NCBI GenBank assembly: GCA_964187785.1 | Contig: OZ076409.1 | Coordinates: forward strand, 34,908,001-34,972,000 | Direction: 5' to 3' | Source: Amphiscolops sp. MND2022 | Taxonomy: Eukaryota | DNA: 64,000 nucleotides | In this document: piece after piece, positions 40,107-62,579 of the stretch | Layout: each line of letters starts with the position of its first letter | Position numbering within the stretch: the stretch's first letter is position 1 | Program-made: the position numbers and the translations under genes | Notes under the pieces: generated by a model | Database searches by the model: none | Seen by the model: the letters and a program-made list of their open reading frames with translations, nothing else | What the model was told of the DNA's origin: nothing

Positions 40107-42447
40107 TGTCACGACCCGCTCCCGGTCGTAATTTCTACTGCTGTAGCGGCATACCCGGCTTTGGAAGAGGTCGAGGACAAGGCCGAGGTAAACTCTATTA
40201 AACTAATTTTAAACTAATCTAAAATTCTACTTACAGTACAGCTAAATCGATTGCAGATAATTTTCCGAATACAAAACCTAGCGTAAACGTTACGGAACAC
40301 TTTTCAGAAATGATTTTTAGCTAAAACTTCCGGTCAAATATTCTCCGCGCGTGATAAGATTTTTCATTTCCGGTATGATCTTCTGATTTTCTGCCATACT
40401 AATCTAAACACTAAAATGAACATTTATAATTGGGATCATTCTTCCACTGGTCCACACTAAAATGAAAACATTAAAATAAAATTCAATTCCGAGATCCCAA
40501 CGGAATTCATACAATCTAAAATGAAAAGGAACAAACAAATAATAGAGCGGAGTTGTTTTCCAGAGATGAAGTGGTTGTAAATATTCACTTAAAGCACAGC
40601 CAAGTGATTTAGGCAAATATTTACAACGCTATGGCAACGTCAATCTACTGAGCTAATATTAGGAATTTTGCTTCTACGGACCGATAACGTCACTCTATTG
40701 ATAGAACTATTCTTAGCTAAGTCGAATAGAATCAATTTCGGTTGCCCCTAGCAACACCAATTGGAATAAGAGAAAGAGAATGAATTCACCTACGCACTCC
40801 GTTTTCTCTTCGCTTGGTCCGACAGCTAAGCTATGAGCAATCTCAATACGTACGGAACACTTACGGAGCGGATTGTAAAATTGTATTCCGCTGTTCAGCT
40901 ATAGATAATCTTAATACGTAGCACCTACGGAGCGGAGAGTAAAACGCAAATGAATAACACTGCTTCAAACGAAATCCAAACAAGGCTTTTCAAATCGATG
41001 CTCTTGGAAGATTTAAGACTTATGATTTTACATAAAGGAAACTGTACTGTAAGGAAGAATGATAGGAAATTGCAATGGTAATTTTATGTTCTGGATTTGT
41101 ATCATCATAGTAAATCACTAAAACACGTTGACATTACGCCTTACTTAGTTTCTCTTTAAGGGAACAAATCTATTTGATTTACTACGGCATTCAAAATATC
41201 TTAATGATAATCCTAACGTAGGACGTAAGGTCAACGTCAATTCATAGGCTCCAAGCCAGTAGTGACAGTTGTATTTCATGATAATGACAATCGGGCTAGT
41301 GATCAGACTTCGATTATGTTTTGATAAACTTCATGATTATTGTGCAAAGTGTTGAAGTTGCTTTCCGTTTATTATTACGAATATGTTGCGCTCATCTTTG
41401 TTGTATCTCGTTAAAGTCCCGTTTGGACTTAATTTGTGTTCAATGTAAACAATATAGCATACCATTAGCAGGTAATTCATATGTTTGAATTTGAGATTAT
41501 AATTTCAGCATCGTTTGTTCCTTTATACCAAATTTCCATGTTTTTCCCCCGCTTCCAAATTGATTTATTCCGTCGTCATTCCGTCACCATTTTTGAGTGT
41601 CATTCTGTTGCTCCGAATCTCAGCTTCCCAAATTGAAAGTTGACTAATTGTTCATGCCGGCGTGCTTACGCTGATGAAAATGCAAGCTAGACTTTGTTTT
41701 ACCGCAATTTTGAGACCTAAACAGGAAATGGAATTGCCTGAACAAAAATGATTTCAACAAATTTTACGGGACGCTGACGCAACTAGGAATTTTGATGCCT
41801 GATTTTACGACGCGGGACTGAAATGATATGAATCACTAGCGCTTTTTGTTGAACAAACCCGATTTTTGTGATACCTAGGAATTTTTAGGTGAGGAACAAA
41901 TGATGCTGGGAAGGTATAAATATGTAATACATACATGTAAACACACAATTTTGACTTGCCTTGTAACAATCAGTTTTGTTCCGTTACTATAACGTATCCA
42001 AAAGAAAACTTAAATCTTTGAAGAATTCAACTTTTCCAAAGATACTCTCTCTCTCTCTCTCGATCAAAATGACAACTAGAAGCCAGAAGAGGAAAGCTGT
42101 AGCTGAGTTAGTGCCAGGAGATTTCGAAGTTTCTCTGAATGAAAATGGCTCTATTGAAAACCTGATACCTAGCTCTAGTAAAAATCCTAGACTTGAGCTT
42201 GAAAACCTGGAAGAAATGAAAACAACTCTGAGAAAAGAAATAATGACTGATCTAACAAAGATATTAGCCGAAAATCAAAAGGAAATGCTCAAATTAATAG
42301 CACCTACGAACAAGAAACGCACAGTTAGTTCGAACATACAAGATTCTGATTCTGACCAAGAAAACATCTCCGTAACAAGAACGTCCACCCCAGTCAAAAC
42401 ACAAACTGCGACTAATTCTAAAACAACACCGAACAATAGTCGTAACA
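40107..42447 (+). repeat. 5' LTR of element B
   Basis: Direct repeat of 54389-56730. Confidence 0.97.
41915..41920 (+). promoter_or_regulatory. Putative LTR TATA box
   Basis: GGTATAAATA ~150 bp upstream of the gag ATG. Confidence 0.5.
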
Positions 42448-43478
42448 TGGTGACAGGAGTCCTCAATGATTCCACTAACCAACCCACCAAAAGACCAAAA
42501 GTACAACGTATACTCAGCGAACAACCAAAAGACCGACCATCCACGTCAAAGATATTGTTCGCACCACAACCACAGACATTCCCATCAACCAATCTACTTC
42601 CGATGCCGAAAGCACTCACTGCTTCGCTCCCAGTTTTCGATGGTAAGTCCGAAAAGTTTGAAATTTTTGAGGACCTATTCCGAAACAATATCAAAATGTA
42701 TCCTCACCTAACCGAGATACAAAAGATCAACTATTTCCATTCACTCCTACGAGGAAACGCACTACAAGCGTATTGTAATCTAGATGACACCAAAAAAGAC
42801 AACCTAGAAGAAGTCATAACGGCATTTAAACGCCGCTTTGGTGATTTCCAATCATCCGCTAAAGCGAGATGTGAGTGGGACGCCCTGCATTTTGACCCCA
42901 CTAAACAGAAACTCCATGAGTTCCTTGACACCCTGCAAAAAACTGCAAAAGAAACATTCGGCTCAGAAGCACAAAAATTCATTGATAAAGCAATCTACGC
43001 CAAAATGCCCGATCACGTCAAAAAGATCCTCAACAGAGCATATTTGTAAGATAATCCCTACAATGATATAGTTTTACATCTTGAGAGGGAGATGAGATTA
43101 AACGGACTAGGTGCGCCCGATGAAACAATCCTAGTCCCACTCAACACAGTGGACGCTGTAGTGACGGACCATAAAAAAGACCAACAACAACGAGGCCATT
43201 GTTTTCACTGTGGCAAATATGGCCACTACAAAGCACAGTGTCGCAAACTTCAACGAGAACGTTATAATACAGCCAAAACAAACACAAAAGACCCAGCCCA
43301 AAACGAAGTACCCAAACCCAAGTGTGATACATGTGGCAAGATGCACAAAACTGAGAATTGTTGGAACGGAGCCAACGCAGTAAATGACCCCAGAAAGAAG
43401 AAACGAGAATTCACCATCCCAACCAACAAAATCAGTGAACAACCTGTACCTACCACGTCCTCTCAGCCAAAAAACTAA
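42069..43478 (+). CDS. gag: gag of element B (one in-frame TAA at 43047-43049)
   Basis: LPVFDGKSEKFE.FE capsid-like motif; two zinc knuckles CFHCGKYGHYKAQC and CDTCGKMHKTENC; both halves are in the same frame. Confidence 0.9.
42448..42460 (+). other. Primer binding site of element B (tRNA-Leu-like)
   Basis: TGGTGACAGGAGT directly after LTR CA; resembles Leu PBS TGGTGTCAGGAGT (from memory). Confidence 0.6.
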
Positions 43479-46400
43479 AGTCGCCGCGCCTACGATTTGG
43501 GGAAAAAGTAGACGCGAGGGCGTACACGATAGAGGACCCCCCAAACAGGTATGAAGAAGATTTTTTAACCGAATGTAATGAAGAACCAACTCAAGACTGG
43601 CAACGCCGTTGGAACGTAGGCATGATACTCAGGCATAACGCCAGACACCCAGAAGATCCAACACCACTACCCCAGTGGATAACAGAATCGCCCGATAACT
43701 ATGCGACACTCAAAAGACCGTTGCCGGAATCAAAAACAGACCGAATTTATATATATGACAGAGACTACAGATGCGACCCTTGGGATGAACCAACTATCTA
43801 TGATACAAATAAACTATCCTTCAAAATCCAAGTCTCAAACCCTCAAGCTCAAACTACGAAGACCACAAACCTACCGTCACCGCCGTCACCGATCCTGAAA
43901 AGAACAACACCGTCCCCAACAGCACCCGTCACCGTCACGTCCACACCGATCGATGCCGAAAACATCATATGCATTGAAGACAAAACAATATGGTCACGAC
44001 AAGCAAGAGAACAGCGAGAAAACACCGCTTCGCTCTCGTCATCACCACAAACCGCGCCAGCCACAGCAATAGCCGCTGAAGACGAAGAAATAACGGAATG
44101 TCACCCAACACTACCAGAAGATCTAGATGTCATCAAAGAATTCATCCAGCACGACAAGGAAGACGACTACATCCCGTTAATGTCTGCAATTGCCCTCAAG
44201 AAGAAAAAGAGAATGCTCTTCTTGCCAACCGAATTCAACACTGTCAAAATCGAAGCCTTAGTCGACTCAGGTGCGTACATTAATGCTATTAGCGAAAGGG
44301 AAGCTGAAAAACTCCACCAAAATGCGAGTCAATGCATTGTTAACAAAGCACCTCCACCCCCTTTCAAAGTGCAATACGCCAATGCCGAACTAGAACAACC
44401 ACTTGCCACGTACACTCTACGCTTCAAAATAGGGGATTACACTTTTGAAGAAACATTCATCATCATGAATCAAACGTCATTCCCCATAATTGGATTAGCG
44501 TTTCTACGAAAGCATGCCGCAATCCTTGACACGGCACAGGGAACCATCAACTTTCCCAAGATCCAGATCACGATGGCGCTCACAGACGAAAGACAAAAGT
44601 GCAATCCCAAACCTATCACGATAAAGACCGAAGCCAAACACACAATTCCAGCACACTCTACCCGAATCATATACGCAACAATCCCTGTGAGTACCGAACA
44701 CTCAATAACGGGCACAATACAACCCCTACCACAATTCGATGAATGTGCGAAAGTAATAGTAGCCCCAGCGATTACAACAGCCAGAGATAAAAAGCTCCCA
44801 ATTAAAATCGCCAACACCACGGATTTCCCATACACAATAGCAAACGACACCAAAATGGCCGAACTGCAAATCCTGAAACCCGAAGAAACGAAGATGATCC
44901 GTCCAGTTGACATTGCCGCCCTGAATCTCCTCAATGACCATGACGATGTGGTCACGTACATCAACGCACTAATGCAAGTAGAACGGCCAGAAGACAACGA
45001 AGAAAAATTCTGGTTCCCGACCCCAGAACACCCAGGCAACGAACAAGAACATTCGCCCATACAAAAGCGAATCCTGAAAGAACTGCGGGACCTTGCCGAA
45101 TTAGAAAAACTTGACCCAACCGAAAACGAAGACTCTCGCAACAAATTTCTATCAATGTTCAAATGGACAGACTCACTAATTGCGGGCAAAGACCGTGAAA
45201 ATCTTGAGGACACCATTGTTGAATTCAATGACATCTTTGCTCGACACCGACTAGATATCGGGATGAATACACAGTTCAAAGTCAGCCTAACACCACAGAA
45301 CGACAAACCAGTCTACACACAGAGCTTACCCGTCCCGATCAACCTCAAAGAAGACCTAACAGTGGAACTGGCACTGATGCACAAATACGGCATCATCACG
45401 ACACTCCCCTTCTCCAAGTACGCCAGTCCTATATTTGCACAACGGAAACCCAACGGCAAACTGAGACTACTGGTGGATCTGCGCAAAATCAACGCACTCA
45501 TAGCAGATGACTACATCAACAACAACCACCCTGTCAGCACCCTCTCAGATGCGGCACAACACCTAGCAGGGAAAAAACTATTCTGCAAACTTGACTGCTC
45601 CCAGGCGTATCACTGCCTTCAAATGGCAGACCAAAGGTCAGTAGAGTTACTTGCTTTTAATTTTGCTAGTAGGACGTTCGCCTATCGTCGTCTGGCACAA
45701 GGACTAAGCAGAGCTCTATCAGCCTTTTCGAGCTTCATGCGTGAGTATCTGGACTCAGTCATCAAAGCCGATCAATGTGCACAATACGTAGATGACATTG
45801 GCATTGCCGCAAACACAACGGAACAGCTCATAAAAATTATCAGAGCAGTCTTCAAATGCATTCGGAAAGCAGGACTAAAACTAACCATCGAAAAATGCCA
45901 TTTTGGAGTAACCCAAATCGAATTTCTTGGCCGAACCATCACCCCCGACGGAGTGGCCCCGCAAGATCAAAAAGTCAAAAATTTCCTCTCCAAAGTACGC
46001 TTCCCCAAATCCAAAAAACAAGTTCAAAAGTATATTGGCTTTGTTAACTATTACCGCAACTACATACCGCGCTTATCAGAAAAACTCATCGGCATGTACG
46101 AACTTCTTAAAGCAGACTCCAAGATCAGAATTTCAGAAGAACTTGTCGATAACTTTAAGGAAATCAACGCCAGTTTAGCGGAAGCTTGTGAACTCGCACT
46201 AAGACAGCCTATAGCAGGGAAACAGTACGTTCTAATGACGGACGCAAGCTTTCGTGCGTCAGGCTACGCCCTCATGATTGAGGAGAATGATGAACGCAAA
46301 ATACTCTCCAAACGGAAAACTTTCGCACCAGTAGCGTTCGGATCACGAGTTTTTTCACCTGCACAACTGAAAATGTCTATCTACTGCAAGGAATTCTTAG

Positions 46401-48766
46401 CAATCTACCATGCATTCCTCGAATACTGCCACATACTATGGGAAGCAACAATTCCAACCCTGGTCTTAACAGACAACCGCTCAGTAACGAGATTCTTCCA
46501 GACCAAAACGACACCCCCTGCACTCTGGAACGCTTGCGACTATGTATTACAGTTCAAGTTTCGAATTATGCACGTAGCAGGCTCCCAAAACACAGCAGAA
46601 GATTTTCTCTCAAGACTCGAACTTACACCGAAAGAAAAGGTACAACTTAAACTACGAGACGACATCCTAACGTCCCCAATTGAGGTCAATCTACAATCAT
46701 CAGATGTAGCTGATGAAGAACAACTTTTCTTCCTACCTGATGAAGAAGATGAATCTGAACAAGAAATCTTTGCCCGAAAAGCACTCAGCAAACGTCGCGC
46801 CCTAGACGAACATGAGAGAGAACTATCAACAAAAGTAACCGAAGTCATCAAGATACCACTCAACTCCGCAGTCTACTCCTTCGGTGCAATCAAAGAAAAT
46901 GCACGGATCAGAAACGAGCAAGATGCAGACCCTCTCCTCAAAGCACTGAAACAACGGATCTCACACGAAGAATATGACAAACACCTTCTCAAAACTGAAC
47001 CACGAGGACGAAACCTATTACGTCATGAAGAAAGAATCATAATGAAAGATGGAGTTCTGATGCGGAAATACTATGGAGAAGACGGATCAGTCACCCATAA
47101 TCAAATTATAATTCCGAAACACCTAGTCCCAGAACTCTTGGCCACTCTACATGGGAAAACAAATAAACACCCAGGAATCACAAAAATGATACAAGAATGC
47201 AGAGCGAAATACTACTTCCCGGGTCTTGCACGTAAAATCAGAGCTTGGGTAACCAGCTGTCAAGACTGCATTGCCAATAAAAGAATTGACACAAAACAAA
47301 TACGCCCCAAAATGCTAAGCAACACTGATTTCACAATGGGCCCAGAAGACTGCCTAGAAGTAGACATTCTACCAAATCTACCTTCCTCAAATGGATACCA
47401 ACACATCATAACGATGATGGATGTTTTTTCGCGTTACCTTTTCGCTTACCCGACACAGGACATGACAGCCAAAACAGTCGCACGATGCATAATAGACGTC
47501 ATGACACGACACTGCTACCTGCCGACCGTCATTCTAACGGATAAAGGATCACAATTCAGGTCAGAAGTAGTCAATCAAATAACACAAACACTGGATATAC
47601 GGATAAGCCACGCATCGACGAAACACGCTCAAACAATTGGCATCCTAGAAAATCCTCATGCCTCTTTGAAAACCTCCCTAAAGATATCAACGGGAGAACG
47701 ACGCTCTATGTGGCATAAATATGTCCAGATCGCGGTCATGAACTACAATACGAGCTATCATGAAAGCCTAGGTTGTGAAACTACAACAGTATTTCACGGA
47801 CGCATTCCGTACAACATCCTAGACATAAAACTCGGATTGAAACCGGAATGGAAAAAAGATAACAACGAAGAACTGACGGATCAACTACAGAAGCAAATAT
47901 CCGAAATACACCAAGCCGCCAAAGAAAATCTAATGCAGTCCTACTTAAAGTACAAACAGTACTATGACCAGAAAGCGACAGCAACGCCACTCAAAGTCAA
48001 CGACTACTGCTACGTCCTTAATCCGAAGGCAGACAATCAGTCGATGAAATTTGCCTTTAAAGATTGCATTTGGACTGGACCCTACATAGTAGTCAAAGTA
48101 CTCTCGAACAACAACTACGTCGTACGCCGCACGGGAACTAGGTATACTCAAACCCTCCACAGAATTCGCCTAAGGCTATATGCGCCCAATCAGCGAGTAC
48201 CTGATGTAACAGTCAGAAGGGAAGATTACCTTCCAGACCCAGAGGTTAAAACAACCCACAATGATTGGTACGCACAAGCTTGGGAAACCGAATTCGGAGA
48301 AGTTCTGTTCGGAAACAATACGGAAAACGCCGCCAAAGAAGCTACACTTACAGAAATCGAAGACATAGCAGGAAACGACGAAAGTACAACGGAAAATGAT
48401 GTGGTTAAAACAACCACCAAAGAAAGTATAGTGGAAAACGACGTAGTTAAAATAACCACAGACGAACCTACAACGGAAAACGACGTGGCTCAAACAGCCA
48501 CAAATGAAAATACTGCAGAAGATAAAACACCTTCCGACAATATAACGTCATTTGACCTAGATGTCAGCGATAACCCATATATTTTGACCCCACCACCGAT
48601 ACACAGCCCTCCCAAAACACCCGAATTGCCGCCTATCGTCGTTGGATATAACCCTAGAAAAGTGGGAAGATACAACTTACGACCTAATCCGAAACCCAAT
48701 GTCAATCCTGATTTTCGAATGCTTGACTCAGCTACTACGGAGGACTCACGTCTAACTCAAGACTAG
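43472..48766 (+). CDS. pol: pol of element B (PR-RT-RH-IN), intact, -1 frame relative to gag
   Basis: ALVDSGA, LRLLVDLRKIN, YVDD, MTDAS, HHCC, D-D-E core, WTGPY; frame is open from the gag end. Confidence 0.97.
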   Translation, partial: KLKSPRLRFGEKVDARAYTIEDPPNRYEEDFLTECNEEPTQDWQRRWNVGMILRHNARHPEDPTPLPQWITESPDNYATLKRPLPESKTDRIYIYDRDYRCDPWDEPTIYDTNKLSFKIQVSNPQAQTTKTTNLPSPPSPILKRTTPSPTAPVTVTSTPIDAENIICIEDKTIWSRQAREQRENTASLSSSPQTAPATAIAAEDEEITECHPTLPEDLDVIKEFIQHDKEDDYIPLMSAIALKKKKRMLFLPTEFNTVKIEALVDSGAYINAISEREAEKLHQNASQCIVNKAPPPPFKVQYANAELEQPLATYTLRFKIGDYTFEETFIIMNQTSFPIIGLAFLRKHAAILDTAQGTINFPKIQITMALTDERQKCNPKPITIKTEAKHTIPAHSTRIIYATIPVSTEHSITGTIQPLPQFDECAKVIVAPAITTARDKKLPIKIANTTDFPYTIANDTKMAELQILKPEETKMIRPVDIAALNLLNDHDDVVTYINALMQVERPEDNEEKFWFPTPEHPGNEQEHSPIQKRILKELRDLAELEKLDPTENEDSRNKFLSMFKWTDSLIAGKDRENLEDTIVEFNDIFARHRLDIGMNTQFKVSLTPQNDKPVYTQSLPVPINLKEDLTVELALMHKYGIITTLPFSKYASPIFAQRKPNGKLRLLVDLRKINALIADDYINNNHPVSTLSDAAQHLAGKKLFCKLDCSQAYHCLQMADQRSVELLAFNFASRTFAYRRLAQGLSRALSAFSSFMREYLDSVIKADQCAQYVDDIGIAANTTEQLIKIIRAVFKCIRKAGLKLTIEKCHFGVTQIEFLGRTITPDGVAPQDQKVKNFLSKVRFPKSKKQVQKYIGFVNYYRNYIPRLSEKLIGMYELLKADSKIRISEELVDNFKEINASLAEACELALRQPIAGKQYVLMTDASFRASGYALMIEENDERKILSKRKTFAPVAFGSRVFSPAQLKMSIYCKEFLAIYHAFLEYCHILWEATIPTLVLTDNRSVTRFFQTKTTPPALWNACDYVLQFKFRIMHVAGSQNTAEDFLSRLELTPKEKVQLKLRDDILTSPIEVNLQSSDVADEEQLFFLPDEEDESEQEIFARKALSKRRALDEHERELSTKVTEVIKIPLNSAVYSFGAIKENARIRNEQDADPLLKALKQRISHEEYDKHLLKTEPRGRNLLRHEERIIMKDGVLMRKYYGEDGSVTHNQIIIPKHLVPELLATLHGKTNKHPGITKMIQECRAKYYFPGLARKIRAWVTSCQDCIANKRIDTKQIRPKMLSNTDFTMGPEDCLEVDILPNLPSSNGYQHIITMMDVFSRYLFAYPTQDMTAKTVARCIIDVMTRHCYLPTVILTDKGSQFRSEVVNQITQTLDIRISHASTKHAQTIGILENPHASLKTSLKISTGERRSMWHKYVQIAVMNYNTSYHESLGCETTTVFHGRIPYNILDIKLGLKPEWKKDNNEELTDQLQKQISEIHQAAKENLMQSYLKYKQYYDQKATATPLKVNDYCYVLNPKADNQSMKFAFKDCIWTGPYIVVKVLSNNNYVVRRTGTRYTQTLHRIRLRLYAPNQRVPDVTVRREDYLPDPEVKTTHNDWYAQAWETEFGEVLFGNNTENAAKEATLTEIEDIAGNDESTTENDVVKTTTKESIVENDVVKITTDEPTTENDVAQTATNENTAEDKTPSDNITSFDLDVSDNPYILTPPPIHSPPKTPELPPIVVGYNPRKVGRYNLRPNPKPNVNPDFRMLDSATTEDSRLTQD

Positions 48767-48920
48767 CTAAAAAACTCAAAAAACCAAACCGAACCGGAAT
48801 GGCTACGGCAATTTTTCTCAAGATTCTCTAAAACTACATACCCAAAAACTAATACAACAAAGATCAGCAGACAATAAAAGGAAAATATAACTACATCAAA
48901 ACCCAAATGAAACTAAATCA

Positions 48921-51900
48921 TCAACAGGTTTTAGACACTTTCTTAGACTTCGGCTGACTACCAGAACCATCATCATCAGCATCTCGCACAGCTTTCTTTC
49001 TTCCTTTAGATGAACCAGCTCCACCACTCGAATCACCACCGACGTTTTTCTGCTGCTTCCTTTTAAACGAAATAGTAGCAGACTTAGACTCCGACTTCGT
49101 TCCGCCATTACTTGACTTACTGCCACCAGATTTCACAGAAACACCACTTGGAGGACCTGTATCTTGCCTCTTCCGATGGATCACAGAACTCAAGGAACCA
49201 CTCGAACCAGCTGTATCGCCACTATCAGATAGCCGGGACATCCGATTTGCATTGTTGTACTCCACATAACGGGCATCGAAGCTCTTCCGGCGCTCTGCGA
49301 GGAAAGTAGTAAATAAGGCACTATACTTCACAACAAAGGCATCTACATCCTCCCTGCAAAAATCTGTCCACATACTGAAGTCAGACGCTCCAAAGAATCT
49401 ACCAGCATCCGCGATGGCCTTCTTCACAACTATAAGAGTCTGATCACTGAAGAAGGATTGATGCGAATACCCTTCGCTCAATATATAAGACTGCACCAGT
49501 TGCACACAGCTCTGAAAGTCTGCAACACTCAATGCAAAACCAGATAAATCCAGAGACACGGCAGGATAGCGTGAGACAGACACTCCCGCGACAAGACAAC
49601 ACAACTTGAATACCCGGAGCAAATGTGGTCGTGACAAGAACCCTACATCACGGAGCAGGTACGGCACCACATTCACGATGTCACCAGCAGACTGCCCTGA
49701 CGAATAATGATACCCACGCTTTTCCACAATGAAACTTGCATGTTCCTCCAAAGCTGCACTACTTTCGTCCACACTCAGCGAACCACAGGATACAAGAATA
49801 CGGCACAAATCCGCAAATAGACTGAAAACGGCCACATCATCGCCTTCCAGCATCAACTCGGGGCAGAAACTACACATCCCCTTAGCAATAACAGAACGTG
49901 CATATGTGCTTTCCAGTAAAATGATGATCAGACGATCAACGAACTGACGACAATGAAGTCGGAAAGCCACATACTCTTTCGTCTTGCCTGCGGATAACTG
50001 TTGCCCCAAGTCATGATTAGAGAGGAAAGAATCACACGGAACAACAGCGAAATCCCGGACCTTCACGACATCCATGTAACACTCCCAAGCATGAATTTCA
50101 GGAAGACCACTGGTGCTGCGAGTTTTCAAGAGCAGGCAATACACAAAATTGCAAAACTCGCCATAAGCGCGGAAAGCATATTCCGCCTGATCCTTTCGAA
50201 ATCTGGGGCAATTGTTGTAGACTAAAACATACACCATGATTCGTATACAACAGAAGAACAACCCTACCCCAATAAACAAAAGAGGAAGACAGGAAAGAAC
50301 AGTCACTAATACGAACAAATACGCAGTCAACAACAGTCAAAAAACAATCTATCAACTCAAAAGAAAACACTCACAAGTATCAAGGATCATTTTCAGCAGA
50401 CTGAACCGATACGTTATCATATTATCGGCAGTTAGTAACCAATCAATCCCCTGTAGCTAAAATACACAACATGATATGACAAAAAGTAACACCGCAACTA
50501 CACCGGACGGAAGGAACAATTTTCACTCACCCGTTCAGCCTTGTCCTTAGCCTCAGGGTTACCAGTACATCGAACAAATGGACGTATTGAAGGCCATAAC
50601 TCTATCAGATCTGACAGTACTTCCAGCAAATCAGCGAATTCCACGTGGCCCTGACGAACACTTTTACACAGTATGGCTCTCTCCTCCATCCAGTCCTCGT
50701 AAATGGCAGTTTTCAAACGCAACACGGTATAATCCACCAAGGAAGTCACCTCCATCATACTGAACACGTCCTGATAGGCTTGCCGAATACAACGAATCAA
50801 CATCTCACTAGTGAAAGGCTGGTAAGACACAAAGACACGACTGTCAGCGCGAGTGTCACTCAAGACACGGGCTAAGGACGGACTTCCGCCGACTATAGCC
50901 AAAGGCAACTTCCCAGACGGTAAACTACAGACGACTCGTGCCAAGGGTAGCAACTCTGGATTTGGCACACGCTGCAGCAGCGACTCACAACCGACACATA
51001 CCTTCTTCAAATAGTTGTCTTCCCAGAAGAGAACGAAACAACGTTCTACCTCCGTATCCTTTTCGTACTGCAAAGAATACTCCCGAAATTGCTCAATGTT
51101 CTGCTCCAACATCACGCGCAGCACTCGGGGAACAAGGCCTTGACACAACACGGACTGAAACAAACACCCAAATGAAAAGAAGAAGGAAGAGAAAATAAAC
51201 AACAACGGAGAGCGAAATCACACAACAGTACATCTTTACGGTCACCTAGCGGCTTACAATAAAAGGAGCAAATACCACATAACAGAACACCACCCACTAA
51301 ATGTACCAAACACACAAAAATACTAACCACAGTCTCTGAGCGACTCCACTGTAGAGAGAATTCCGGATCCCGACCGCCCAGAGACGCAAGGAAGTAGCCC
51401 CACAGACGACGAACCAGCGTGAAATCCCCGCCACTGCGCAACACATCACTCAAGCTTGAAACGAGAGTCATCAGTGGCACCTTCGAAGAAGCCTTTGAAT
51501 GTTTGGGCAACATGTCCTCAGGGAAAGGAAACTCCCCGCCCAAATCCACGAAGGGCCGCGAAAGGAAGTCGTCCCTCTGACGGGCACTCAGCTCCATGGG
51601 CTCCATTAGCTTGTTGTACACAGGGAGACCCATGTGCACACGATACGTGACGTCCTGCTCCCAGTGCTTCTTCGACTCAAAGTGACGAACAAACTCAGCT
51701 GCCCCTTTTGAGCCCATCTTTACGTCTCTTCTACAAATGCGACAATAGAAGACCTTTGCACTTCCACACTCCGAACCCGTCACGAAATCAGCAAACAATG
51801 GATTCAGCGCTAGCATCCGACGATGCAACAACTTCCGACTGCTATACTTCTTCGCCTTCGGGCGCTCAAAGTGACTCTCCACTTTCTCAACAAGCTCGCT

Positions 51901-52985
51901 GAAGCCTATAACACGCACAAAACCAATCAACCAAATGTAACACCCAAAACAAACGTCGCTGCAACGAACCACACACCATTCCAACCAGAGGCCAATCACA
52001 AATAAACAACTCACCTGTCTGTATCTGCCGAGCAGTACGCTCCTCTACCGTCGAAGCCAACTGACGACCCAGCTGCATCATTTCGGGTGACACGGGAGTT
52101 GCCGAGAATGATACGTCTTCTGCCCCACTCCAACCACTCAAGGTAGCATCAACATCTGCGACCCGTGTCGTCCTTTTCAATTTCGGAGACGATTCCATGA
52201 ACTTCACGCTCGTCTTCCGGAATGGAAACACTTTCGAACCTACAACACAAGAGTGACAAGAAAAGGAAAACAGAAACCAACAAGTGAAAAAAAAAGAAAA
52301 AAAACAACAACAACAAAAGAAACCAATCATGCAAACACACAACTTACAGACTGGCGTATCCTCCTCTTCTACAGTTCTTTCTTCTCCTGTGGAGGTGGTA
52401 GCAGCCTCACCTTCATGAGGCTCCACACTGACATCAAAATCGCCCGGAACCACTTCGGACAAATCAGGAGGAACTGCAGAGGAAACATCATTGCCCGGAA
52501 CTACTTCGGACAAACCAGGAGGAGCTGCAGAAGAAACATCAACACCCGGAACTACTGAAGATCCAGTAGTAGGATTAGCAGGAAGCAATGTTGTCAAAAC
52601 ATCATTGATAGACTGCTCAGGAACCAGCACTGAAGTCACTGGAGGCAGCTTCAAAGAAGAACCCAGCGAAGATAACCCCACGGGGGTAGCAGACGTCCCA
52701 CCCGTAGTGGCAGCGGAAACAACAGCCAAGGAAGTTCCAGGTTGAGTTACTGAAAATCAAGATCTGGTTCAGACGCGTCAGAGTTACGGGTAAGACTATA
52801 AAAGGCTGATCACCAAAACAAAAATAGTCCTACTACCCAAGAAGTCAGAAAGATTTTTACCAACCTGAAGAAGTAACTATAACTTCCGTTTCCGAGGGAT
52901 AAGCGTCGTCTTCAGTGAAGCAGAAGTTAGTCTCATGCCCACTGAGAAAACCAGAGACATCAGGAGGAACAGCGTTTTCACTCAT
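48921..52985 (-). CDS. Antisense 7-exon accessory gene of element B (~1110 aa, zinc finger, hAT-transposase-like)
   Basis: Exons 52985-52865, 52749-52348, 52239-52015, 51905-51328, 51154-50531, 50456(or 50450)-50375, 50221-48921; six GT-AG introns of ~75-175 bp; phases join into one 3333-nt ORF. Confidence 0.85.
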
Positions 52986-53577
52986 GACCAAAAGTGACAA
53001 TAGCGATTGCCAACGAAATCTAAAAAGGAAAAAGAAATCAACAAAATAGAAATCACGTCGAGTAAAAGTTGACACCCTAAAAGAAATCATCAACGTCATC
53101 CCTACGTAATTGAAAAATCATCTAAACTTCAACTTCAGTGAAAGCCTATTACGGCAGTGACGGGACAAAACGTTCCAAAAAGCATACGGATGAATAAAAG
53201 ATTCATCAAGAAGCTCTGAAGGAAAGATGGCATTTTGAAAATTACGGAATATGAACGTAGAACATTCGAGAAAAATCAATGACGTCATCGCGCCATTAAA
53301 CAGAAAGAAGAAAGAAGATAAAATTAGAAGATTTTCTATGAGTTTCAACCAATCACTGCGCAGATGAAAGAAATCTCTTTTCTTAACTCGGGACGCACCG
53401 GAACGAAAACGGAAAAACCGACCAATAGAATTTCGATAAAAATTACGTAAGAAAGAATTTGAAACGGTCATTTGTCGTCCAATCTTCATAAAGCTTGACC
53501 AGCGCAATTTTCTTAACGCACAATCGTCACCAACAAGGAAAATCCTTGAAACAAAACAATCTGAAATTCTCAACAAG

Positions 53578-54483
53578 ATGAACGGATACAGCTTGGTTAT
53601 TGACATCTCTTCTGATGAGGAAAATAATCGCACGAGCACTCCGCTGAAAACACTGCCCCTGAATACGGTAGGAACTCTAAGTGACTCCTCGGTCGAAGTT
53701 TACCGCGGGAGCGACGCAGACTTAGAGTCTTCTTTTGGTTCCGATGTCTCCCCGAGGAAATTTGGGCCCACCCCCAAAAAGAAAAAGAAGTTCGGGCGAG
53801 TCACGTTCAACCTGCCAACAGCCAATTCGGACACAGATGACTACTACGAAGAGCCACCTTCCCCGCAGGAGCAGTCCTCTCGGGCAGAAACCGCGTCCAC
53901 TCCGAAAGGTAAAATTCCCTTGCTGGGAAATGAAAAAATACCGAATACGGTCAGGCTGAATGATCTAAATGAACCCCCGCTAGCTGATCTGGACGCTCTA
54001 TACAACTTAGATTTAGAAGACCGTCAGTTCTCCGCAGCCGTCAGTCGTGGCCGTGGCCTGAAAGCAACGGAATGCCCCAGACAACCCCCATTCTTACCCC
54101 GCAGAAAGGAAAACGTTCCCCCTACGGAGGGAAAAGAAAAATGCAACTGTACATTGGGCAACTCGAGCAAGCCAAGTGGGCCACCCGAATTTTGTCCTGC
54201 TGTGTGGGCGCAAATAGAAAAGGAAAGTCACGAAATGGAGGAAGAAGAAAAACTCATAGCCAAGATGAAGGAGGGCAGAGGTCTTGCTCGCGGCAGGCGG
54301 CTACACAACGGACGCCCCCCAATCATTATCCGAAAAGAGATCCCACACTGCAACGCTCTACCCTTGTCTCTTGGTTCAAGAGGGGCCCTGTCACGACCCG
54401 CTCCCGGTCGTAATTTCTACTGCTGTAGCGGCATACCCGGCTTTGGAAGAGGTCGAGGACAAGGCCGAGGTAAACTCTATTAA
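53578..54483 (+). CDS. 301-aa accessory ORF of element B, low complexity, runs into the 3' LTR
   Basis: Uninterrupted ATG ORF in AT-rich DNA; basic NLS-like run, RG-rich end. Confidence 0.65.
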   Translation: MNGYSLVIDISSDEENNRTSTPLKTLPLNTVGTLSDSSVEVYRGSDADLESSFGSDVSPRKFGPTPKKKKKFGRVTFNLPTANSDTDDYYEEPPSPQEQSSRAETASTPKGKIPLLGNEKIPNTVRLNDLNEPPLADLDALYNLDLEDRQFSAAVSRGRGLKATECPRQPPFLPRRKENVPPTEGKEKCNCTLGNSSKPSGPPEFCPAVWAQIEKESHEMEEEEKLIAKMKEGRGLARGRRLHNGRPPIIIRKEIPHCNALPLSLGSRGALSRPAPGRNFYCCSGIPGFGRGRGQGRGKLY

Positions 54484-56730
54484 ACTAATTTTAAACTAAT
54501 CTAAAATTCTACTTACAGTACAGCTAAATCGATTGCAGATAATTTTCCGAATACAAAACCTAGCGTAAACGTTACGGAACACTTTTCAGAAATGATTTTT
54601 AGCTAAAACTTCCGGTCAAATATTCTCCGCGCGTGATAAGATTTTTCATTTCCGGTATGATCTTCTGATTTTCTGCCATACTAATCTAAACACTAAAATG
54701 AACATTTATAATTGGGATCATTCTTCCACTGGTCCACACTAAAATGAAAACATTAAAATAAAATTCAATTCCGAGATCCCAACGGAATTCATACAATCTA
54801 AAATGAAAAGGAACAAACAAATAATAGAGCGGAGTTGTTTTCCAGAGATGAAGTGGTTGTAAATATTCACTTAAAGCACAGCCAAGTGATTTAGGCAAAT
54901 ATTTACAACGCTATGGCAACGTCAATCTACTGAGCTAATATTAGGAATTTTGCTTCTACGGACCGATAACGTCACTCTATTGATAGAACTATTCTTAGCT
55001 AAGTCGAATAGAATCAATTTCGGTTGCCCCTAGCAACACCAATTGGAATAAGAGAAAGAGAATGAATTCACCTACGCACTCCGCTTTCTCTTCGCTTGGT
55101 CCGACAGCTAAGCTATGAGCAATCTCAATACGTACGGAACACTTACGGAGCGGATTGTAAAATTGTATTCCGCTGTTCAGCTATAGATAATCTTAATACG
55201 TAGCACCTACGGAGCGGAGAGTAAAACGCAAATGAATAACACTGCTTCAAACGAAATCCAAACAAGGCTTTTCAAATCGATGCTCTTGGAAGATTTAGGA
55301 CTTATGATTTTACATAAAGGAAACTGTACTGTACGGAAGAATGATAGGAAATTGCAATGGTAATTTTATGTTCTGGATTTGTATCATCATAGTAAATCAC
55401 TAAAACACGTTGACATTACGCCTTACTTAGTTTCTCTTTAAGGGAACAAATCTATTTGATTTACTACGGCATTCAAAATATCTTAATGATAATCCTAACG
55501 TAGGACGTAAGGTCAACGTCAATTCATAGGCTCCAAGCCAGTAGTGACAGTTGTATTTCATGATAATGACAATCGGGCTAGTGATCAGACTTCGATTATG
55601 TTTTGATAAATTTCATGATTATTGTGCAAAGTGTTGAAGTTGCTTTCCGTTTATTATTACGAATATGTTGCGCTCATCTTTGTTGTATCTCGTTAAAGTC
55701 CCGTTTGGACTTAATTTGTGTTCAATGTAAACAATATAGCATACCATTAGCAGGTAATTCATATGTTTGAATTTGAGATTATAATTTCAGCATCGTTTGT
55801 TCCTTTATACCAAATTTCCATGTTTTTCCCCCGCTTCCAAATTGATTTATTCCGTCGTCATTCCGTCACCATTTTTGAGTGTCATTCTGTTGCTCCGAAT
55901 CTCAGCTTCCCAAATTGAAAGTTGACTAATTGTTCATGCCGGCGTGCTTACGCTGATGAAAATGCAAGCTAGACTTTTATTTTACCGCAATTTTGAGACT
56001 TAAACAGGAAATGGAATTGCCTGAACAAAAATGATTTCAACAAATTTTACGGGACGCTGACGCAACTAGGAATTTTGATGCCTGATTTTACGACGCGGGA
56101 CTGAAATGATATGAATCACTAGCGCTTTTTGTTGAACAAACCCGATTTTTGTGATACCTAGGAATTTTTAGGTGAGGAACAAATGATGCTGGGAAGGTAT
56201 AAATATGTAATACATACATGCAAACACACAATTTTGACTTGCCTTGTAACAATCAGTTTTGTTCCGTTACTATAACGTATCCAGAAGAAAACTTAAATCT
56301 TTGAAGAATTCAACTTTTCCAAAGATACTCTCTCTCTCTCTCTCGATCAAAATGACAACTAGAAGCCAGAAGAGGAAAGCTGTAGCTGAGTTAGTGCCAG
56401 GAGATTTCGAAGTTTCTCTGAATGAAAATGGCTCTATTGAAAACCTGATACCTAGCTCTAGTAAAAATCCTAGACTTGAGCTTGAAAACCTGGAAGAAAT
56501 GAAAACAACTCTGAGAAAAGAAATAATGACTGATCTAACAAAGATATTAGCCGAAAATCAAAAGGAAATGCTCAAATTAATAGCACCTACGAACAAGAAA
56601 CGCACAGTTAGTTCGAACATACAAGATTCTGATTCTGACCAAGAAAACATCTCCGTAACAAGAACGTCCACCCCAGTCAAAACACAAACTGCGACTAATT
56701 CTAAAACAACACCGAACAATAGTCGTAACA
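54389..56730 (+). repeat. 3' LTR of element B
   Basis: Direct repeat of 40107-42447, preceded by short purine run AAGAGGGG, followed by TSD ATGAA. Confidence 0.97.
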
Positions 56731-57640
56731 ATGAATTCTCAGAAAAACAAAAGAATGAGCTCACAAGAAAACAAAAACTGGAAGGTCTGGATAAACTCGA
56801 CAATGGCACATCACAAAAGCAAATCGCTGTTCGGTATGGCGTTGATCGCAGTTGCGTTTCGCGAATAAAATCAAATTCAGCGAGAATTCGCACAGCTCAG
56901 GAAAATAATGAAAATCTCGAGATGAAACGAATGCGGAAAGCCGGTGGCGAAGACATGTAAAATGCACTATTTGCATAGTTCACACAATTGCGAGCCAAGA
57001 ATGCACCTGTGTCGGGACCAATATTACTCGAAAAAGCGTGTCAGCTATCAATCAGCTTCGATAGTGATTTTACGTCCACTATTCAGCCATTAGATCAAGG
57101 AATAATTCGCGCGATAAAAACCTAATATCGAAGCCAATTATTGCGGCAAATGATAATTTTATTGACGATAAGGGCTCTGTCGAAGATTTTGCTAAAAGTG
57201 TGAATGTTCTAAGAGCCATGTTTTTAATTCATCGAGCACTATTCTTACTAACGCCTCAGATCATTAAAAATTGTTGTCGAAAGGCTGGAGTTCAGAGAGC
57301 AAGCCAAATTGAATCTGACGAAATTGAATAAATCACGCCAAAATTTGATGAATCACTACATGTACCGGAAAACATTTCGGCAGAGGATTTCGAAAGTTTA
57401 GTTGATGCAGATAAACAACTCGAATGCTATCAAGAGCAATCGAGTGACGAAATCGTCCACGTGGTCGAAAGCGAAGATAAAAATTCCCAGGAAGATGCAA
57501 TTATTGACCCTCCAACTGCTTCTGAAGCCCTGCAAATGATTCAAAAATTGAGATTGTTCTTTGGCGAAGACGCAGAACTGAACAAGTTGGATTTTCTAGA
57601 AGCTTCTATCTTCGAACCTCGAAGATAAAAATACTGACTA
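56731..57640 (+). pseudogene. Tigger transposase remnant
   Basis: CENP-B-type HTH (LT.KQKL..LD.L..G.SQKQIA..YGV.RS.VSRI), PVSGPILLEKA, then jumps to IQPLDQGII (most of the DDE domain deleted); contains stops. Confidence 0.88.
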
Positions 57641-58509: not shown

Positions 58510-60826
58510 CCCGGGTTGACCCTCTTACTAGCATCTTGGCTGTCTTGGCAAGATCTTGCCAAATTCTTACTACATCTTGGGAACCATGGATAACATGGTC
58601 AGATTCTCATTAAGACCTTACCCAGTGTTCGAAGCCATGGCATCCTTGCCAAGATCCATGGCAAGTTCCTTGGTAGCCTTGCCAAGATCTTGCCATGATC
58701 TTGCCATGATCTTGGCAAGGATGCCATGGCCATGCAAGATCGTGCAAAGGCTAACCATGATTAACCATGATCTTGACAAGGGTTCCATGGTAACAATAGC
58801 GAAATTTTTGGAAAATTCAGAGCTCTTATTTTCAAATTGTAACTAGTATCTAAAAATTTATTGGGACCAAAAAACAGACATGTATAGGGTTAAACAGAAG
58901 AAAAATTGGTAGTCAAGACATTAAAGGAAAAATGTTTTTGCTCCGACCATTTTGAGTTTTTATTGCATTCTCGAACTTCAGTAATTAGAACCCGTTACCT
59001 CAATAGATCAGGTAATAGCATGATTTGCATAATTGTAAACAAATCATAGCTAGAAAAATTGGTTTTCACACCGATATCGCAAATCCCGCAAGTTGCAATA
59101 ACTTGATTCGGAGTTTGCTTTGTATGATAATTTATGATAGTAGTAACAATGCCGTGCTCTCAAGTAACAAAACTCGGTCAATAGGTGCAGCAAATTACTG
59201 TGCAAGTTTTAGATAATTTTCAATTAAAAAACTATTTTCAATCAATAAATATTATGTCCAAAGTTATTACAATGGCTAATTCAAAAATTGCAGACGACAA
59301 AGAATTTTTGCGAAAAGAATAAATTATGCACAATTAATACCAGCTTACATGTCTTACTATGGTTATCTTGTCAAGATCTTGCCATGATCTTGCCATGATC
59401 TTGGCAAGCGTTCCATGTATCATGATCAGCCATGATCTTGGCAAGGGTACCATGGTTAACCATGATTTAGCAAGATTAACCATGATCATGGCAAGCGTTC
59501 CATGGCTTCGAACACTGGGTAGAAAAGTTGGTTTTTACACCGATATCGCAAACCCGCAAGTTGCAATAACTTGATTCGGAGTTTGCTTGGTATGATAAGT
59601 CATGTTAGTAGTAACAATGCCGTGCTCTCAAGTAACAAAACTCGGTCAATATATGCAGCAACTTATTGAGCAAATTTTGGATAATTTTCAATTAAAAAAC
59701 TATTTTCAATCAATAAATATTATGTCCAAAGTTATTACAATAGCTAATTCAAAAATTGCAGACGACAAAGAATTTTTGCGAAAAGAATAATTTATGCACA
59801 AATAACACCAGCTTACATGTCTTACCATGGTTATCTTGTCAAGATCTTGTCATGATCTTCCCATGATCGTGGCAAGCGTTCCATGTATCATGATTAGCCA
59901 TGATCTTGGCAAGGGTACCATGGTTAACCATGATTTAGCAAGATTAACCATGATCATGGCAAGCGTTCCATGGCTTCGAACACTGGGTACTAAGATAATA
60001 CTTATTCCAAGATCGTATCTTATCACGATGGACAAAAATTTTAAGATTATAAAAAAACGCTATACCTTCGGTACAAGCAGCGGAGATTCAATCTAAAGGC
60101 TCATTTCACCCAACAACGACTATTTCTACTCGTTTTTTTCATAATCAAAATGCTTAAATCTGCTGAAAAAATTTTGCATGCAAAAATGCGTGAAAAATTA
60201 CGATAACGTATTCTGGCTTCCGAAATTTTGACGAGAATCCTAATAAGTCCTCGCCTGTTTAAGACTGAGAAATGCGAATATACCAAATGAAAGGTCTTTT
60301 CAAGGGCTTTCCAAAACTTGTTATTTATCACTCCTGTCGATTCCAGTGTCGGAGAAATATGCTCTCAAACGTCCAGACCCACTATCGGAAAGTTACAAAG
60401 GAAAGACCTTAAAATCCTGCAAGTTTTGTAAAAATCATATTTCCAGCTTTCTTTGAGCTTGTTTCAGCAGCCTTATTACTGCTAGAAACGGCAGTCATTG
60501 CACTAATTTGGGTAATGATTCAGCTCAAGGCTTTTCTGACGCCGTTGTTTGCGACAGTTTTGCAATTGAAAGAACAATTTAACCAGCGTCTTCCAAATTT
60601 TATACAATGCTAACAGAAGAATGCTAACAATACAGATTTATTTTCTTTCCAAATATGATTTTACAATAAAAGTTTTTTTGGGAACATGGCTCTCTTGATA
60701 AGATCTTACCATGACATCTTGTAATTCTTGCCAATATCTTGGCAAGATCTTAGCTAAGTTTTTTCCAAGATCTTAGCAAGATCTTGCCAAGATCTTACTA
60801 AGATATCCATGGAGGGTCGACCCGGG
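58510..60826. mobile_element. Non-autonomous TIR element (outer)
   Basis: TA-CCCGGGTTGACCCTC ... GAGGGTCGACCCGGG-TA with subterminal ATCTTGGCAAG repeats. Confidence 0.75.
58621..59987. mobile_element. Nested non-autonomous TIR element with duplicated right end
   Basis: TA-CCCAGTGTTCGAAGCCATGG ... CCATGGCTTCGAACACTGGG-TA; ~468-bp tandem duplication 59051-59519/59520-59987. Confidence 0.8.
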
Positions 60827-61750: not shown

Positions 61751-62579
61751 TTTGCTCATTCCTTTACGGTTGGTTAGTGAATTAACAAAGATGTTTCAAA
61801 TCTCGTACTTTGTCAAATGATGAAGTCGTATCTTTCGGTATCTTTCGGAACGTGTATTTCCAATAGACAAAAATTCATCGAGTATTGTTACATCTGGAGT
61901 TTTTTGTAATTCCAAAACTTGTCTTCACTGAAGGATTAGTTTCTAATTGTTGACAAATGTAATGCTGCTCGGTTACTTTACCTAAAGATGTTACCTTATA
62001 TCGTTGATTTCTATTCTTTTCTGTGTATACTGAGGTTTCTTTTTCACAATTGCCAATTAAACTTTTTTGTAGCCCATTTTCGTTGAGATTTTCTGTTTTC
62101 AGTCGTTTTTCCTGCAGCAAACCTATCTACACATTCTTATGTTGCGCATGTCAGGTTGCTGACTGATAGTAATACGATTGTTTCAATTTTTGGCAATTTT
62201 CGATCGAAAAGTGCAAAAAACCTTGTTCCTTTTCTTTCAACTATAAATAATTCTTGAAAAATGCTTATGCTCCTGATTTTGTTCATTTTTGTAGCTTTCA
62301 AAAAAAATGTACCAAAACTGTATAATGATCACCTAAAGCTGTTCGCTTTGTAAATGTAGACGATTAAAAACTGGAAAGTGCGTGATCTAAACATGCTGAG
62401 GTGTTATCCGTAACGCTGGTCGGTTGGTTCTGAGTTCTGTTTGAAGTAATCCAAAAGCTTTTTCGATTTTCTCAGTGAGTCAAAATTGGAGTTTCGAAAA
62501 TTCAATTGAATCATTTTTGTGGCCATGTGAGAACGTCTAACAAATGTCTCGAAGATTAAAGTGGTCTGAAGAAAAGTAT

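Follow-up and report, generated by a model that had tools for sequence, protein, structure and literature searches.

A 64,000-nucleotide (nt) stretch of the Amphiscolops sp. MND2022 genome (contig OZ076409.1, positions 34,908,001 to 34,972,000; hereafter the window, in whose own numbering positions are given) contains at 40107-56730 a complete Ty3/gypsy-type long terminal repeat (LTR) retrotransposon of 16.6 kb, and between its pol gene and its 3' LTR this element carries a seven-exon unit in antisense orientation. The unit is probably a genuine protein-coding accessory gene of a Ty3/gypsy-type element family in an animal genome, with a splicing pattern and a function that we infer from its sequence. 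Its seven exons on the minus strand (52985-48921), joined through six GT-AG introns, form a 3333-nt frame that encodes 1110 amino acids (aa) and has a single terminal stop.

The gene model combines six donors proposed in a preliminary description of this DNA with the nearest polypyrimidine-AG acceptors on the minus strand. That description had put forward an intact seven-exon gene of ~1110 aa with six GT-AG introns and matching phases, and the open 3333-nt frame, with cumulative intron phases of 1,1,1,0,0,1, supports it in full. The parts of the antisense gene are given below, with the ratio of nonsynonymous to synonymous substitution rates (dN/dS) for individual exons. Siblings are a set of 19 loci (L002-L020) fetched from the genome with 1.5-kb flanks.

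52865-52985, minus strand: exon 1, start codon at 52985-52983, ATG in 19/19 siblings, dN/dS 0.35
52738-52870, no strand assigned: ultraconserved island, intron 1 plus a few flanking bases, with the palindromes TGATCA, GACGCGTC and AGATCT
52750-52864, minus strand: intron 1, 115 nt, weak donor GTTGGT
52348-52749, minus strand: exon 2, low-complexity, with 17-aa tandem repeats at ~52555-52430, dN/dS 0.48
52240-52347, minus strand: intron 2, 108 nt, GTAAGT..AG, 62% T
52015-52239, minus strand: exon 3, dN/dS 0.20
51906-52014, minus strand: intron 3, 109 nt, GTGAGT..AG
51328-51905, minus strand: exon 4, the most constrained exon, containing a C2H2 finger, dN/dS 0.074, 114 library relatives
51664-51744, minus strand: zinc finger C-x2-C-x16-H-x5-H (FYCRIC...H.....HW) within exon 4
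51155-51327, minus strand: intron 4, 173 nt, GTTAGT..AG
50531-51154, minus strand: exon 5, 208 codons, conserved domain, dN/dS 0.18, 36 library relatives
50457-50530, minus strand: intron 5, 74 nt, GTGAGT..AG, conservation ending at ...R|VS
50375-50456, minus strand: exon 6, 82 nt, present in 7/8 diverged loci
50222-50374, minus strand: intron 6, 153 nt, GTGAGT..AG, with a stop 7 codons in if retained
48921-50221, minus strand: exon 7, coding for an all-helical domain over the first ~330 aa and then for a basic Ser/Gly/Lys tail, with the stop, dN/dS 0.32

From intron 1 to intron 6 the donors are GTTGGT, GTAAGT, GTGAGT, GTTAGT, GTGAGT and GTGAGT, the acceptors are all AG, and the lengths are 115, 108, 109, 173, 74 and 153 nt; T makes up 40-62% of the introns on the coding strand, which agrees with the T-rich bodies reported earlier. 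With a coding-strand composition of T 0.30, A 0.21 and G 0.29 the chance that a random codon is a stop is ~5%, or about one codon in 20, so that open exons of 193, 208 and 433 codons lie far beyond chance; for the 433-codon exon, arithmetic from the same composition gives a chance of ~e^-22. Retention of intron 1 or of any of introns 3-6 brings in a stop within 2-71 codons. Upstream of the gene, at 53280-53287 and ~300 nt from the antisense ATG, stands a perfect cyclic AMP response element-like palindrome, TGACGTCA, followed by TCATT, which is a candidate promoter element.

Selection on the frame was measured as pooled pairwise Nei-Gojobori dN/dS over 20 copies, a comparison of sibling copies that the preliminary description had proposed as a check. 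The value is 0.241 in the proposed frame versus 0.93, 1.06, 1.32 and 1.58 in four control frames; the opposite frame, which shares wobble positions with the proposed one, gives 0.305, and the 3' end of pol, for comparison, 0.43. This pattern of substitution shows that purifying selection acts on the antisense gene in the proposed frame.

The boundaries of the exons are also visible in more distant relatives. Searches of the protein libraries gave 431 relatives for exon 7 at E<=0.001, as well as 114 for exon 4 and 36 for exon 5, all from ENA and of single-exon length. In alignments of exon 4 (36 sequences) and exon 5 (30 sequences) conservation ends exactly at the predicted junctions, and open reading frames that read through a junction consist of one conserved exon, a filler rich in Phe, Cys, Leu and Val, and then the next conserved exon (P0226, P0253 and P0265 for intron 3, P0333 for intron 4 and P0359 for intron 5). 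Moderately diverged lineages resemble each other more in the exons than in introns 2-6: the diverged locus L026 is 79-87% identical to the window copy in its exons versus 61-79% in those introns. A search with exon 7 for longer relatives, covering 7999 candidates, found no spliced product in the protein libraries, and the four library proteins that span two exons, of 364 matching an exon query, are all unspliced read-throughs. We regard these read-throughs as neutral rather than negative evidence, since they are genomic open reading frame calls.

These observations also bear on the proposal that the unit acts mainly as an antisense RNA, a source of double-stranded or small RNA that regulates the element, in which the long frame is incidental. 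Regulatory antisense transcription is discussed for micropia and IAP in passages of PMC7264820, and the DNA of the gene diverges fast between lineages, as such a role would allow. Selection specific to the frame (0.24 versus ~1), conservation confined to exons, and frames that are open in 14/19 siblings and in 101/121 exon-7 matches nevertheless make this reading very improbable, and we retain that of a protein-coding gene.

In the genome, a DNA search with 1462 first-look candidates scored at least 36 full-length copies, with identities of 92-100%. For 17 of the 19 siblings the alignment is a single colinear block of 7065 nt. That of L015 falls into three colinear pieces, and L019 breaks off at 5954, beside a second partial copy. 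GT..AG is kept in 113 of 114 sibling introns. The spliced frame is open in 14 siblings, 12 of which encode 1109 aa, while L015 encodes 1126 aa through an extra in-frame 51-nt unit of the 17-residue tandem repeats in exon 2 and L002 has a displaced stop; in the other five, stops or frameshifts interrupt it. Residues 1-330 of exon 7, used as a protein query, gave 121 scored matches among 6999 candidates, of which 101 lack an internal stop, and these matches fall into tiers of ~87-100%, 70-80% and 51-54% identity. In all eight diverged loci taken from the lower tiers the exon order is the same, the introns are kept and the gene lies tail to tail with a related pol; exon 1 was found by tblastn in six of the eight. 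Of five diverged loci tried, L022 and L028 yielded complete spliced frames, of 1077 and 1069 aa.

The preliminary description had pointed to sibling copies as the place where a secondary insertion would be recognised by the absence of the region; the gene stands at the same position in 19/19 siblings and in 8/8 diverged relatives. Base composition provides a further measure of how long the gene and the element have been together. The plus strand is A-rich and G-poor across 42-54 kb, antisense gene included. Read on the plus strand, third codon positions of the antisense gene are A.36, C.31, G.18 and T.15, those of pol are A.38, C.30, G.14 and T.17, and the antisense introns reach A.49, while the host flanks have an AT skew of 0.00-0.01. 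This element-wide strand skew explains the T-rich introns. Neutral sites of the gene share the skew of pol and the host flanks do not, which means that the gene has long replicated together with the element and is neither a secondary insertion nor a recent capture.

Retroelements can transduce host sequence, as noted in parts of PMC7264820, and this would be a precedent for a gene taken up recently from the host or for a secondary insertion confined to this copy or subfamily. The shared position in siblings and diverged relatives, four deeply diverged alleles (described below), neutral sites with the strand skew of the element and the lack of flanking repeats belonging to the gene itself make such an origin extremely improbable; the gene is better regarded as a long-standing part of the element.

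The carrier element has the following other parts.

40102-40106, no strand: left copy of the target-site duplication, the same 5 bases at both ends of the element
40107-42447, plus strand: 5' LTR, 2342 bp, TG...CA ends, holding the first ATG of the gag frame (42069)
42448-42465, plus strand: putative primer-binding-site-like sequence with a TGG start, directly after the 5' LTR
42069-43478, plus strand: gag, with a capsid-like region and CCHC knuckles, and an in-frame stop at 43047-43049 in this copy
43469-43475, plus strand: A AAA AAC heptamer just ahead of the gag stop, pol being in the -1 frame
43439-48766, plus strand: pol, 1775 codons, protease - reverse transcriptase - RNase H - integrase
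48767-48920, no strand: spacer between pol and the antisense gene, 154 nt between the stops, where between-lineage similarity drops sharply
53578-54483, plus strand: orfX, 301 codons, a sense open reading frame with a low-complexity product, ending 95 nt inside the 3' LTR
54378-54388, plus strand: purine-rich tract directly before the 3' LTR
54389-56730, plus strand: 3' LTR, the pair of 40107-42447
56731-56735, no strand: right copy of the target-site duplication, 5 bp

The assignment to the Ty3/gypsy type follows from direct LTRs with TG..CA ends and a 5-bp duplication, from the order of the pol domains, and from a gag with a capsid-like domain and a CCHC knuckle. The two LTRs (40107-42447 and 54389-56730) are 99.6% identical, with 8 mismatches and 1 gap, and their boundaries are common to the siblings L029, L031 and L033. 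A gag-like frame starts inside the repeat, and a tandem arrangement was suspected for this reason; it was ruled out because the repeats of these three siblings end at the same bases, which identifies them as true LTRs. The first gag ATG lies ~380 nt inside the 5' LTR, and the 3' LTR repeats this start of gag (42069-42447 and 56352-56730; open reading frame 56250-56960). Among Pfam families, gag matches DUF1759 at E 1.3e-9, over the cut-off, Retrotrans_gag at E 0.0012 and zf-CCHC at E 0.0054; the last match, at 17.2 bits, lies under its cut-off of 20.8, and the motif C-x2-C-x4-H-x4-C can be read in the translation. Pol matches Asp_protease (258-364), RVT_1 (669-834), RT_RNaseH (928-1034), Integrase_H2C2 (1225-1281) and rve (1302-1394). 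Pol is open in the -1 frame from 43439, and the A AAA AAC heptamer at 43469-43475 looks like a slippery site for retrovirus-style -1 frameshifting. The gag stop at 43047-43049 is a sense codon in 4/4 other copies examined.

Several features of the carrier had been anticipated in the preliminary description: near-identical flanking LTRs, now found with a 5-bp target duplication; a tail-to-tail placement 154 bp from pol, with the pol stop at 48766 and the antisense stop at 48921; and an antisense gene for which no terminal inverted repeats or target duplication of its own had been noticed. No inverted repeats better than 18 nt at 78% flank the gene, and that pair lies partly in coding sequence. 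The same description had proposed a complex multi-gene element, and the element goes further than this, with a selected sense open reading frame, orfX, also downstream of the antisense gene. The dN/dS of orfX is 0.195 in frame versus 1.17 and 2.28 in shifted frames, its frame is kept in at least 13/19 siblings in a projection that ignores insertions, and it matches at 39-68% aa identity in the diverged loci L023, L024, L027 and L028; its product has no Pfam match. By these comparisons orfX is under selection and constitutes a fourth gene of the element.

Other observations concern the element and its surroundings. The 3' end of pol (47421-48766) is the most diverse part among siblings, with a nucleotide diversity (pi) of 0.058 versus 0.015 in exon 7, and the 100-nt segment at 48400-48500 aligns with L021 and L022 at only 12%, a sign that the integrase tail is rich in indels. 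Two same-strand copies of the antisense gene (G000:C1:94136134-94140184 and 94150405-94154456) lie 14,271 bp apart; this spacing is close to the element length minus one LTR (14,282) and suggests a tandem pair of elements sharing an LTR. The window contains two further gypsy-type elements, one at 3587-10601 on the minus strand with knuckle, protease, reverse transcriptase/RNase H and integrase frames in pieces, and one represented by an integrase fragment at 62537-63400, also on the minus strand. Downstream of the element there is a 300-nt direct repeat (59082-59381 and 59550-59849), 94% identical with a spacing of 468 nt. The 1.07-Gb host genome contains nuclear-receptor ligand-binding domains, with 10 matches over the cut-off, but no chlorophyll a/b-binding protein, which marks the host as an animal.

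The orientation of the gene offers a possible explanation for how a multi-intron gene could persist in an element that replicates through RNA. The gene would be transcribed from the minus strand by its own promoter, located between the ATG and the 3' LTR or inside the 3' LTR, and this transcript would be spliced six times. Splice signals are strand-specific, and antisense introns would therefore escape the splicing of plus-strand genomic RNA: on that RNA they would read CT..AC, be ignored by the spliceosome and be copied back into DNA at each round of retrotransposition. The retention of every intron in every copy fits this idea. Elements with an intact gene would leave more descendants, which would mean that the protein serves the element.

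Comparison of diverged loci indicates that the gene and the rest of the element do not always share a history. In sliding-window comparisons of the sequence studied here with four diverged loci, identity is 63-99% over most of pol, drops at the end of pol to 33-79% over the greater part of the antisense gene, and rises again to 82-93% near 53100-53500 in L023 and L028. The pol segments of L021 and L022 are 97.6% identical at the nucleotide level versus 64%, 53% and 53% for their exon 4, 5 and 7 products, and the window copy compared with L023/L028 has 92% identity in pol versus 52% aa identity in exon 7. There are at least four allele classes (the window, L021, L022 and L023/L028) with 52-74% protein identity, and exons 4, 5 and 7 (first 330 residues) are open in all four in the copies examined. 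Such uncoupled divergence of pol and the antisense gene is impossible under uniform divergence and implies exchange of the gene between backbones by recombination. The antisense gene thus behaves as an exchangeable cassette, presumably moved by recombination between co-packaged RNAs, and the pattern suggests a diversifying pressure.

As a tentative extension, the gene could be a hypervariable accessory module in which at least four ancient alleles co-circulate, are swapped between backbones and are held under diversifying or frequency-dependent selection, with a product that would act as a counter-defence or specificity factor, for example against RNA-based silencing by the host, and with intron 1 as a cis-element shared by all alleles. 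We consider this possible, though doubtful at present. If true, it would give animal retrotransposons a counterpart to the fast-evolving accessory genes that complex retroviruses carry.

The shared cis-element in this proposal corresponds to the ultraconserved island at 52738-52870. The island is 85-95% identical at the nucleotide level in L021, L022, L026 and L028, while the exons that flank it have identities of 55-63% in L021, L022 and L028 and of 79-87% in L026, which is closer. Of the island, only the first 73 nt remain in L025 and the first 44 nt in L023. With a pi of 0.0097 the island is the least diverse stretch measured among siblings. It holds the invariant weak donor, and pairing is possible between its 5' end and the start of exon 2. 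The fold energy lies within the usual range (z -0.5 and -1.7), covariation is essentially absent (1 compensatory pair in 35), no Rfam family matches at E<=1 across 48700-54500, and the window, LTRs included, contains no second copy. A genome search gave 1026 island candidates, no more abundant than the antisense gene, and a TATA-like TATAAAAG on the plus strand within the island is kept in only 3/5 lineages. We take it that the island may be a cis-element common to all alleles: a promoter or enhancer, a control of splicing, or a signal in the genomic RNA, three roles that the sequence does not tell apart.

The behavior of the first two introns raises the question of whether the gene model, right in substance, is wrong in detail, so that, for example, intron 2 is retained, or the transcription start lies inside intron 1, leaving exon 1 outside the main mRNA and moving the translation start downstream. 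Intron 2, at 108 nt, has no in-frame stop, intron 1 combines the weak donor GTTGGT with the conservation of a regulatory element, and exons 1 and 2 are the least constrained (dN/dS 0.35 and 0.48). Exon 1 nevertheless bears coding constraint, with an ATG in every sibling and a tblastn match in most diverged loci, and intron 2 combines a consensus donor and a T content of 62% with less conservation than its exons (61% in L026 versus 79-85% for the flanking exons). A revision of this kind is therefore unlikely.

The predicted protein gives limited indications of its role. The preliminary description had read a CRIC-type finger with 15 residues between the cysteines and the first histidine; the finger is present, but its spacing is C-x2-C-x16-H-x5-H. 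In the exon 4 alignment F52, C54, C57, H80 and W81 are near-invariant, with C54, C57, H80 and W81 occurring in at least 90% of the 36 sequences. The layout is that of a U1/matrin-type finger, a single C-x2-C...H-x5-H in which an aromatic residue precedes the first Cys and the spacer between the ligands is long, and its sub-threshold Pfam matches (SF3a60_Prp9_C, zf-C2H2_jaz, zf-met, KIN17 and Sgf11; E 0.03-0.9) are all of this type. The scores fall under the Pfam gathering thresholds (SF3a60_Prp9_C 13.1 bits versus 30.7, zf-C2H2_jaz 12.2 versus 22.6 and zf-met 10.4 versus 21.2), and we treat the U1/matrin-like resemblance as a possible lead and not as membership. Against PDB sequences the exon-4 profile found nothing better than E 0.49, and a metagenome scan with the same profile gave one 26-residue match without the finger region on a 3.5-kb contig (L035), which was judged uninformative. 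The first 330 residues of exon 7 were modelled with AlphaFold as an all-helical domain at a predicted local distance difference test (pLDDT) score of 83.3, an Atlas language-model search with exon 7 returned only helical-repeat look-alikes (0.80-0.86), and the exon 7 tail is rich in Lys, Arg, Ser and Gly. A motif common to gag and exon 2, 'VPGDF.VS', was dismissed as chance, as it was not found in 14 further loci (L021-L034).

On the basis of the U1/matrin-like C2H2 finger, the large helical body and the basic Lys/Arg-rich tail, the most likely role of the product would be to bind nucleic acid in the nucleus and so to regulate the RNA of the element itself or host silencing, whether by helping that RNA or by countering the silencing. 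This role takes up somewhat less than half of the belief that we place in the accessory-gene explanation as a whole.

Where the protein came from is a separate matter. One proposal, compatible with an accessory gene, is descent from a hAT-type DNA transposase (FAM200 / ZBED5 / GTF2IRD2-like, Buster group) that landed backwards in the element, lost its ends and was kept. The language-model features of exon 4 are nearest to GTF2IRD2 and FAM200B-like clusters (zf-C2H2_12, zf-BED, FAM200-ZBED5_RNase-like) at 0.89-0.91, and nine of the ten best named exon 4 matches share a family or clan; scores of 0.9 in this Atlas search are, on the other side, reached by 4-10% of shuffled proteins. The architecture, an N-terminal finger followed by ~750 folded residues, is hAT-like, a low-confidence model of exon 5 begins with three strands and then helices, and exon 5 contains 'YSLQYEKDTEV', which may resemble the first-strand motif of Buster-like hAT proteins. 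Direct comparisons do not bear out these resemblances. No exon and none of 103 alignment members matches the Pfam families zf-C2H2_12, zf-BED, DUF4371 or Dimer_Tnp_hAT at E<=1; the C-terminal hAT dimerisation domain (PF05699) matches neither exon 7 nor 37 relatives, although the model finds 150 other places in the genome; and PF18658 was found in 0/92 genome candidates. When the exon 4, 5 and 7 profiles were compared by hhalign with five intact Ac/Tip-like hAT transposases of the same genome, probabilities were 0.1-0.3%, Hermes-like chains are absent from both fold-search lists, and the gene is not framed by the terminal inverted repeats and 8-bp duplication of a hAT element, the best flanking pair being the one of 18 nt at 78%. 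We consider a hAT origin improbable. Transposons of the hAT type are abundant in this genome, with 2215 first-look dimerisation-domain candidates and several intact frames of 597-697 codons.

Several observations weigh against a spliced, functional accessory gene and temper our confidence in it. Our picture of transcription, of the six junctions and of the promoter and 3' end is inferred from the DNA. No promoter was identified for the antisense gene, and if transcription began far upstream, the leader would contain up to 9 ATGs ahead of the start codon. Neither AATAAA nor ATTAAA occurs on the minus strand within 1.5 kb past the stop. Intron 2 is the only intron that leaves the frame open on retention, with 108 nt and no in-frame stop, and no complete spliced frame was obtained for L021, L023 and L026, three of the five diverged loci tried. 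Diversity among siblings is 0.0205 in introns versus 0.045 at synonymous sites, which is not fully explained and points to either constraint on the introns or an inflated synonymous estimate. The present copy is young, as its LTRs are 99.6% identical, but it is not autonomous, owing to the premature stop in gag. No exon exceeds any Pfam threshold; the exon-7 model has no PDB match (best Foldseek E 0.48; best VIA Z 5.2 on 86 residues); and the exon-5 model, at pLDDT 52.7, is too poor to use, its best Z of 5.2 reflecting a long helix only and having no meaning. The function proposed above thus depends on a weak finger resemblance and on composition.

Genes in a comparable position are known from plants and fungi. 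Passages in PMC7264820 describe additional antisense open reading frames between pol and the 3' LTR in the plant elements Grande, RIRE2, Retand and PvRetro13 and in the fungal element Boty, and such frames in Tat lineages, which the preliminary description had mentioned, are in accord with parts of PMC7264820 and PMC4408406. According to sections of PMC11963269, 97% of Retand clusters encode TRP28; frames bearing PMD and Tr28 are reported for Tat lineages in portions of PMC4408406; and gene23 of Grande has its own promoter and a nuclear product in the accounts of PMC7264820, PMC11963269 and PMC4408406. The gene described here resembles aORF-3R of plant Tat/Retand elements, as treated in parts of the same three papers, in being an extra gene on the opposite strand between pol and the 3' LTR, in its presence in most copies of the family and in being a suspected regulator of the element. 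It differs in its length of 1110 aa, its animal host, its swapped alleles and the accompanying selected sense open reading frame. Products of plant aORFs carry TRP28, PMD or SMC-like domains, which are lacking here: Pfam searches, at E<=1 for the 103 alignment members, matched TRP28 (PF04195), PMD and SMC-like families neither in these members nor in the exons. PMC7264820 and PMC11963269 use the word 'intron' 0 times in their main text, and a six-intron structure is not described in those main texts.

Outside plants, brtn is an additional antisense gene of the Boty-like gypsy elements of Botrytis cinerea and Sclerotinia, described by Zhao et al. 2011 as cited in passages of PMC7264820 and PMC8365987. 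Like the present gene it is an antisense extra gene in a Ty3/gypsy element; brtn resides in fungal chromovirus-type elements, whereas the gene in this study has an animal host and encodes a larger protein outside named families, a contrast drawn with no sequence comparison. HBZ of the deltaretrovirus human T-cell leukemia virus type 1 (HTLV-1) is spliced. It encodes a small bZIP protein, has one intron, is driven by the 3' LTR and belongs to an infectious vertebrate retrovirus, whereas the present gene has six introns and belongs to a gypsy-type retrotransposon; no bZIP match was found by Pfam in the exons of the antisense gene or in alignment members. The laboratory indicator cassettes his3AI and neoAI are reporters whose intron is in sense orientation to the element and antisense to the marker, and is for that reason removed. 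They follow the same strand logic, and the arrangement described here is the converse, with the introns of the cargo gene preserved. The likeness of HBZ, and of related deltaretroviral antisense genes, lies in being a minus-strand gene near the 3' LTR with a nuclear regulatory product, as summarized in parts of PMC11963269 and PMC7264820.

A literature search, with most subscription journals outside its scope, found no case of an antisense coding gene, or of a multi-intron one, in an LTR retrotransposon of an animal. The layout is the same as in the plant and fungal cases, and the family differs from them in its animal host, its unrelated and larger six-intron gene, its exchangeable alleles and ultraconserved intron, and its extra selected sense open reading frame. 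The underlying logic is probably shared with the plant and fungal antisense genes.

Gag and pol are commonly regarded as all that an LTR retrotransposon needs, and this family provides a large, clearly selected, six-intron example of an additional gene with hundreds of copies. It would show, in a natural setting, that a spliced gene can pass through reverse transcription by virtue of its orientation alone. Two features offer handles beyond those of the plant and fungal cases: diverged and exchanged alleles, which may reflect a role in an arms race or in specificity, and a 115-nt intron whose conservation exceeds that of any exon and which may act as a cis-element. For the annotation of animal genomes, the finding is a warning that multi-exon, 'host-like' genes of unknown family can be the cargo of retrotransposons.

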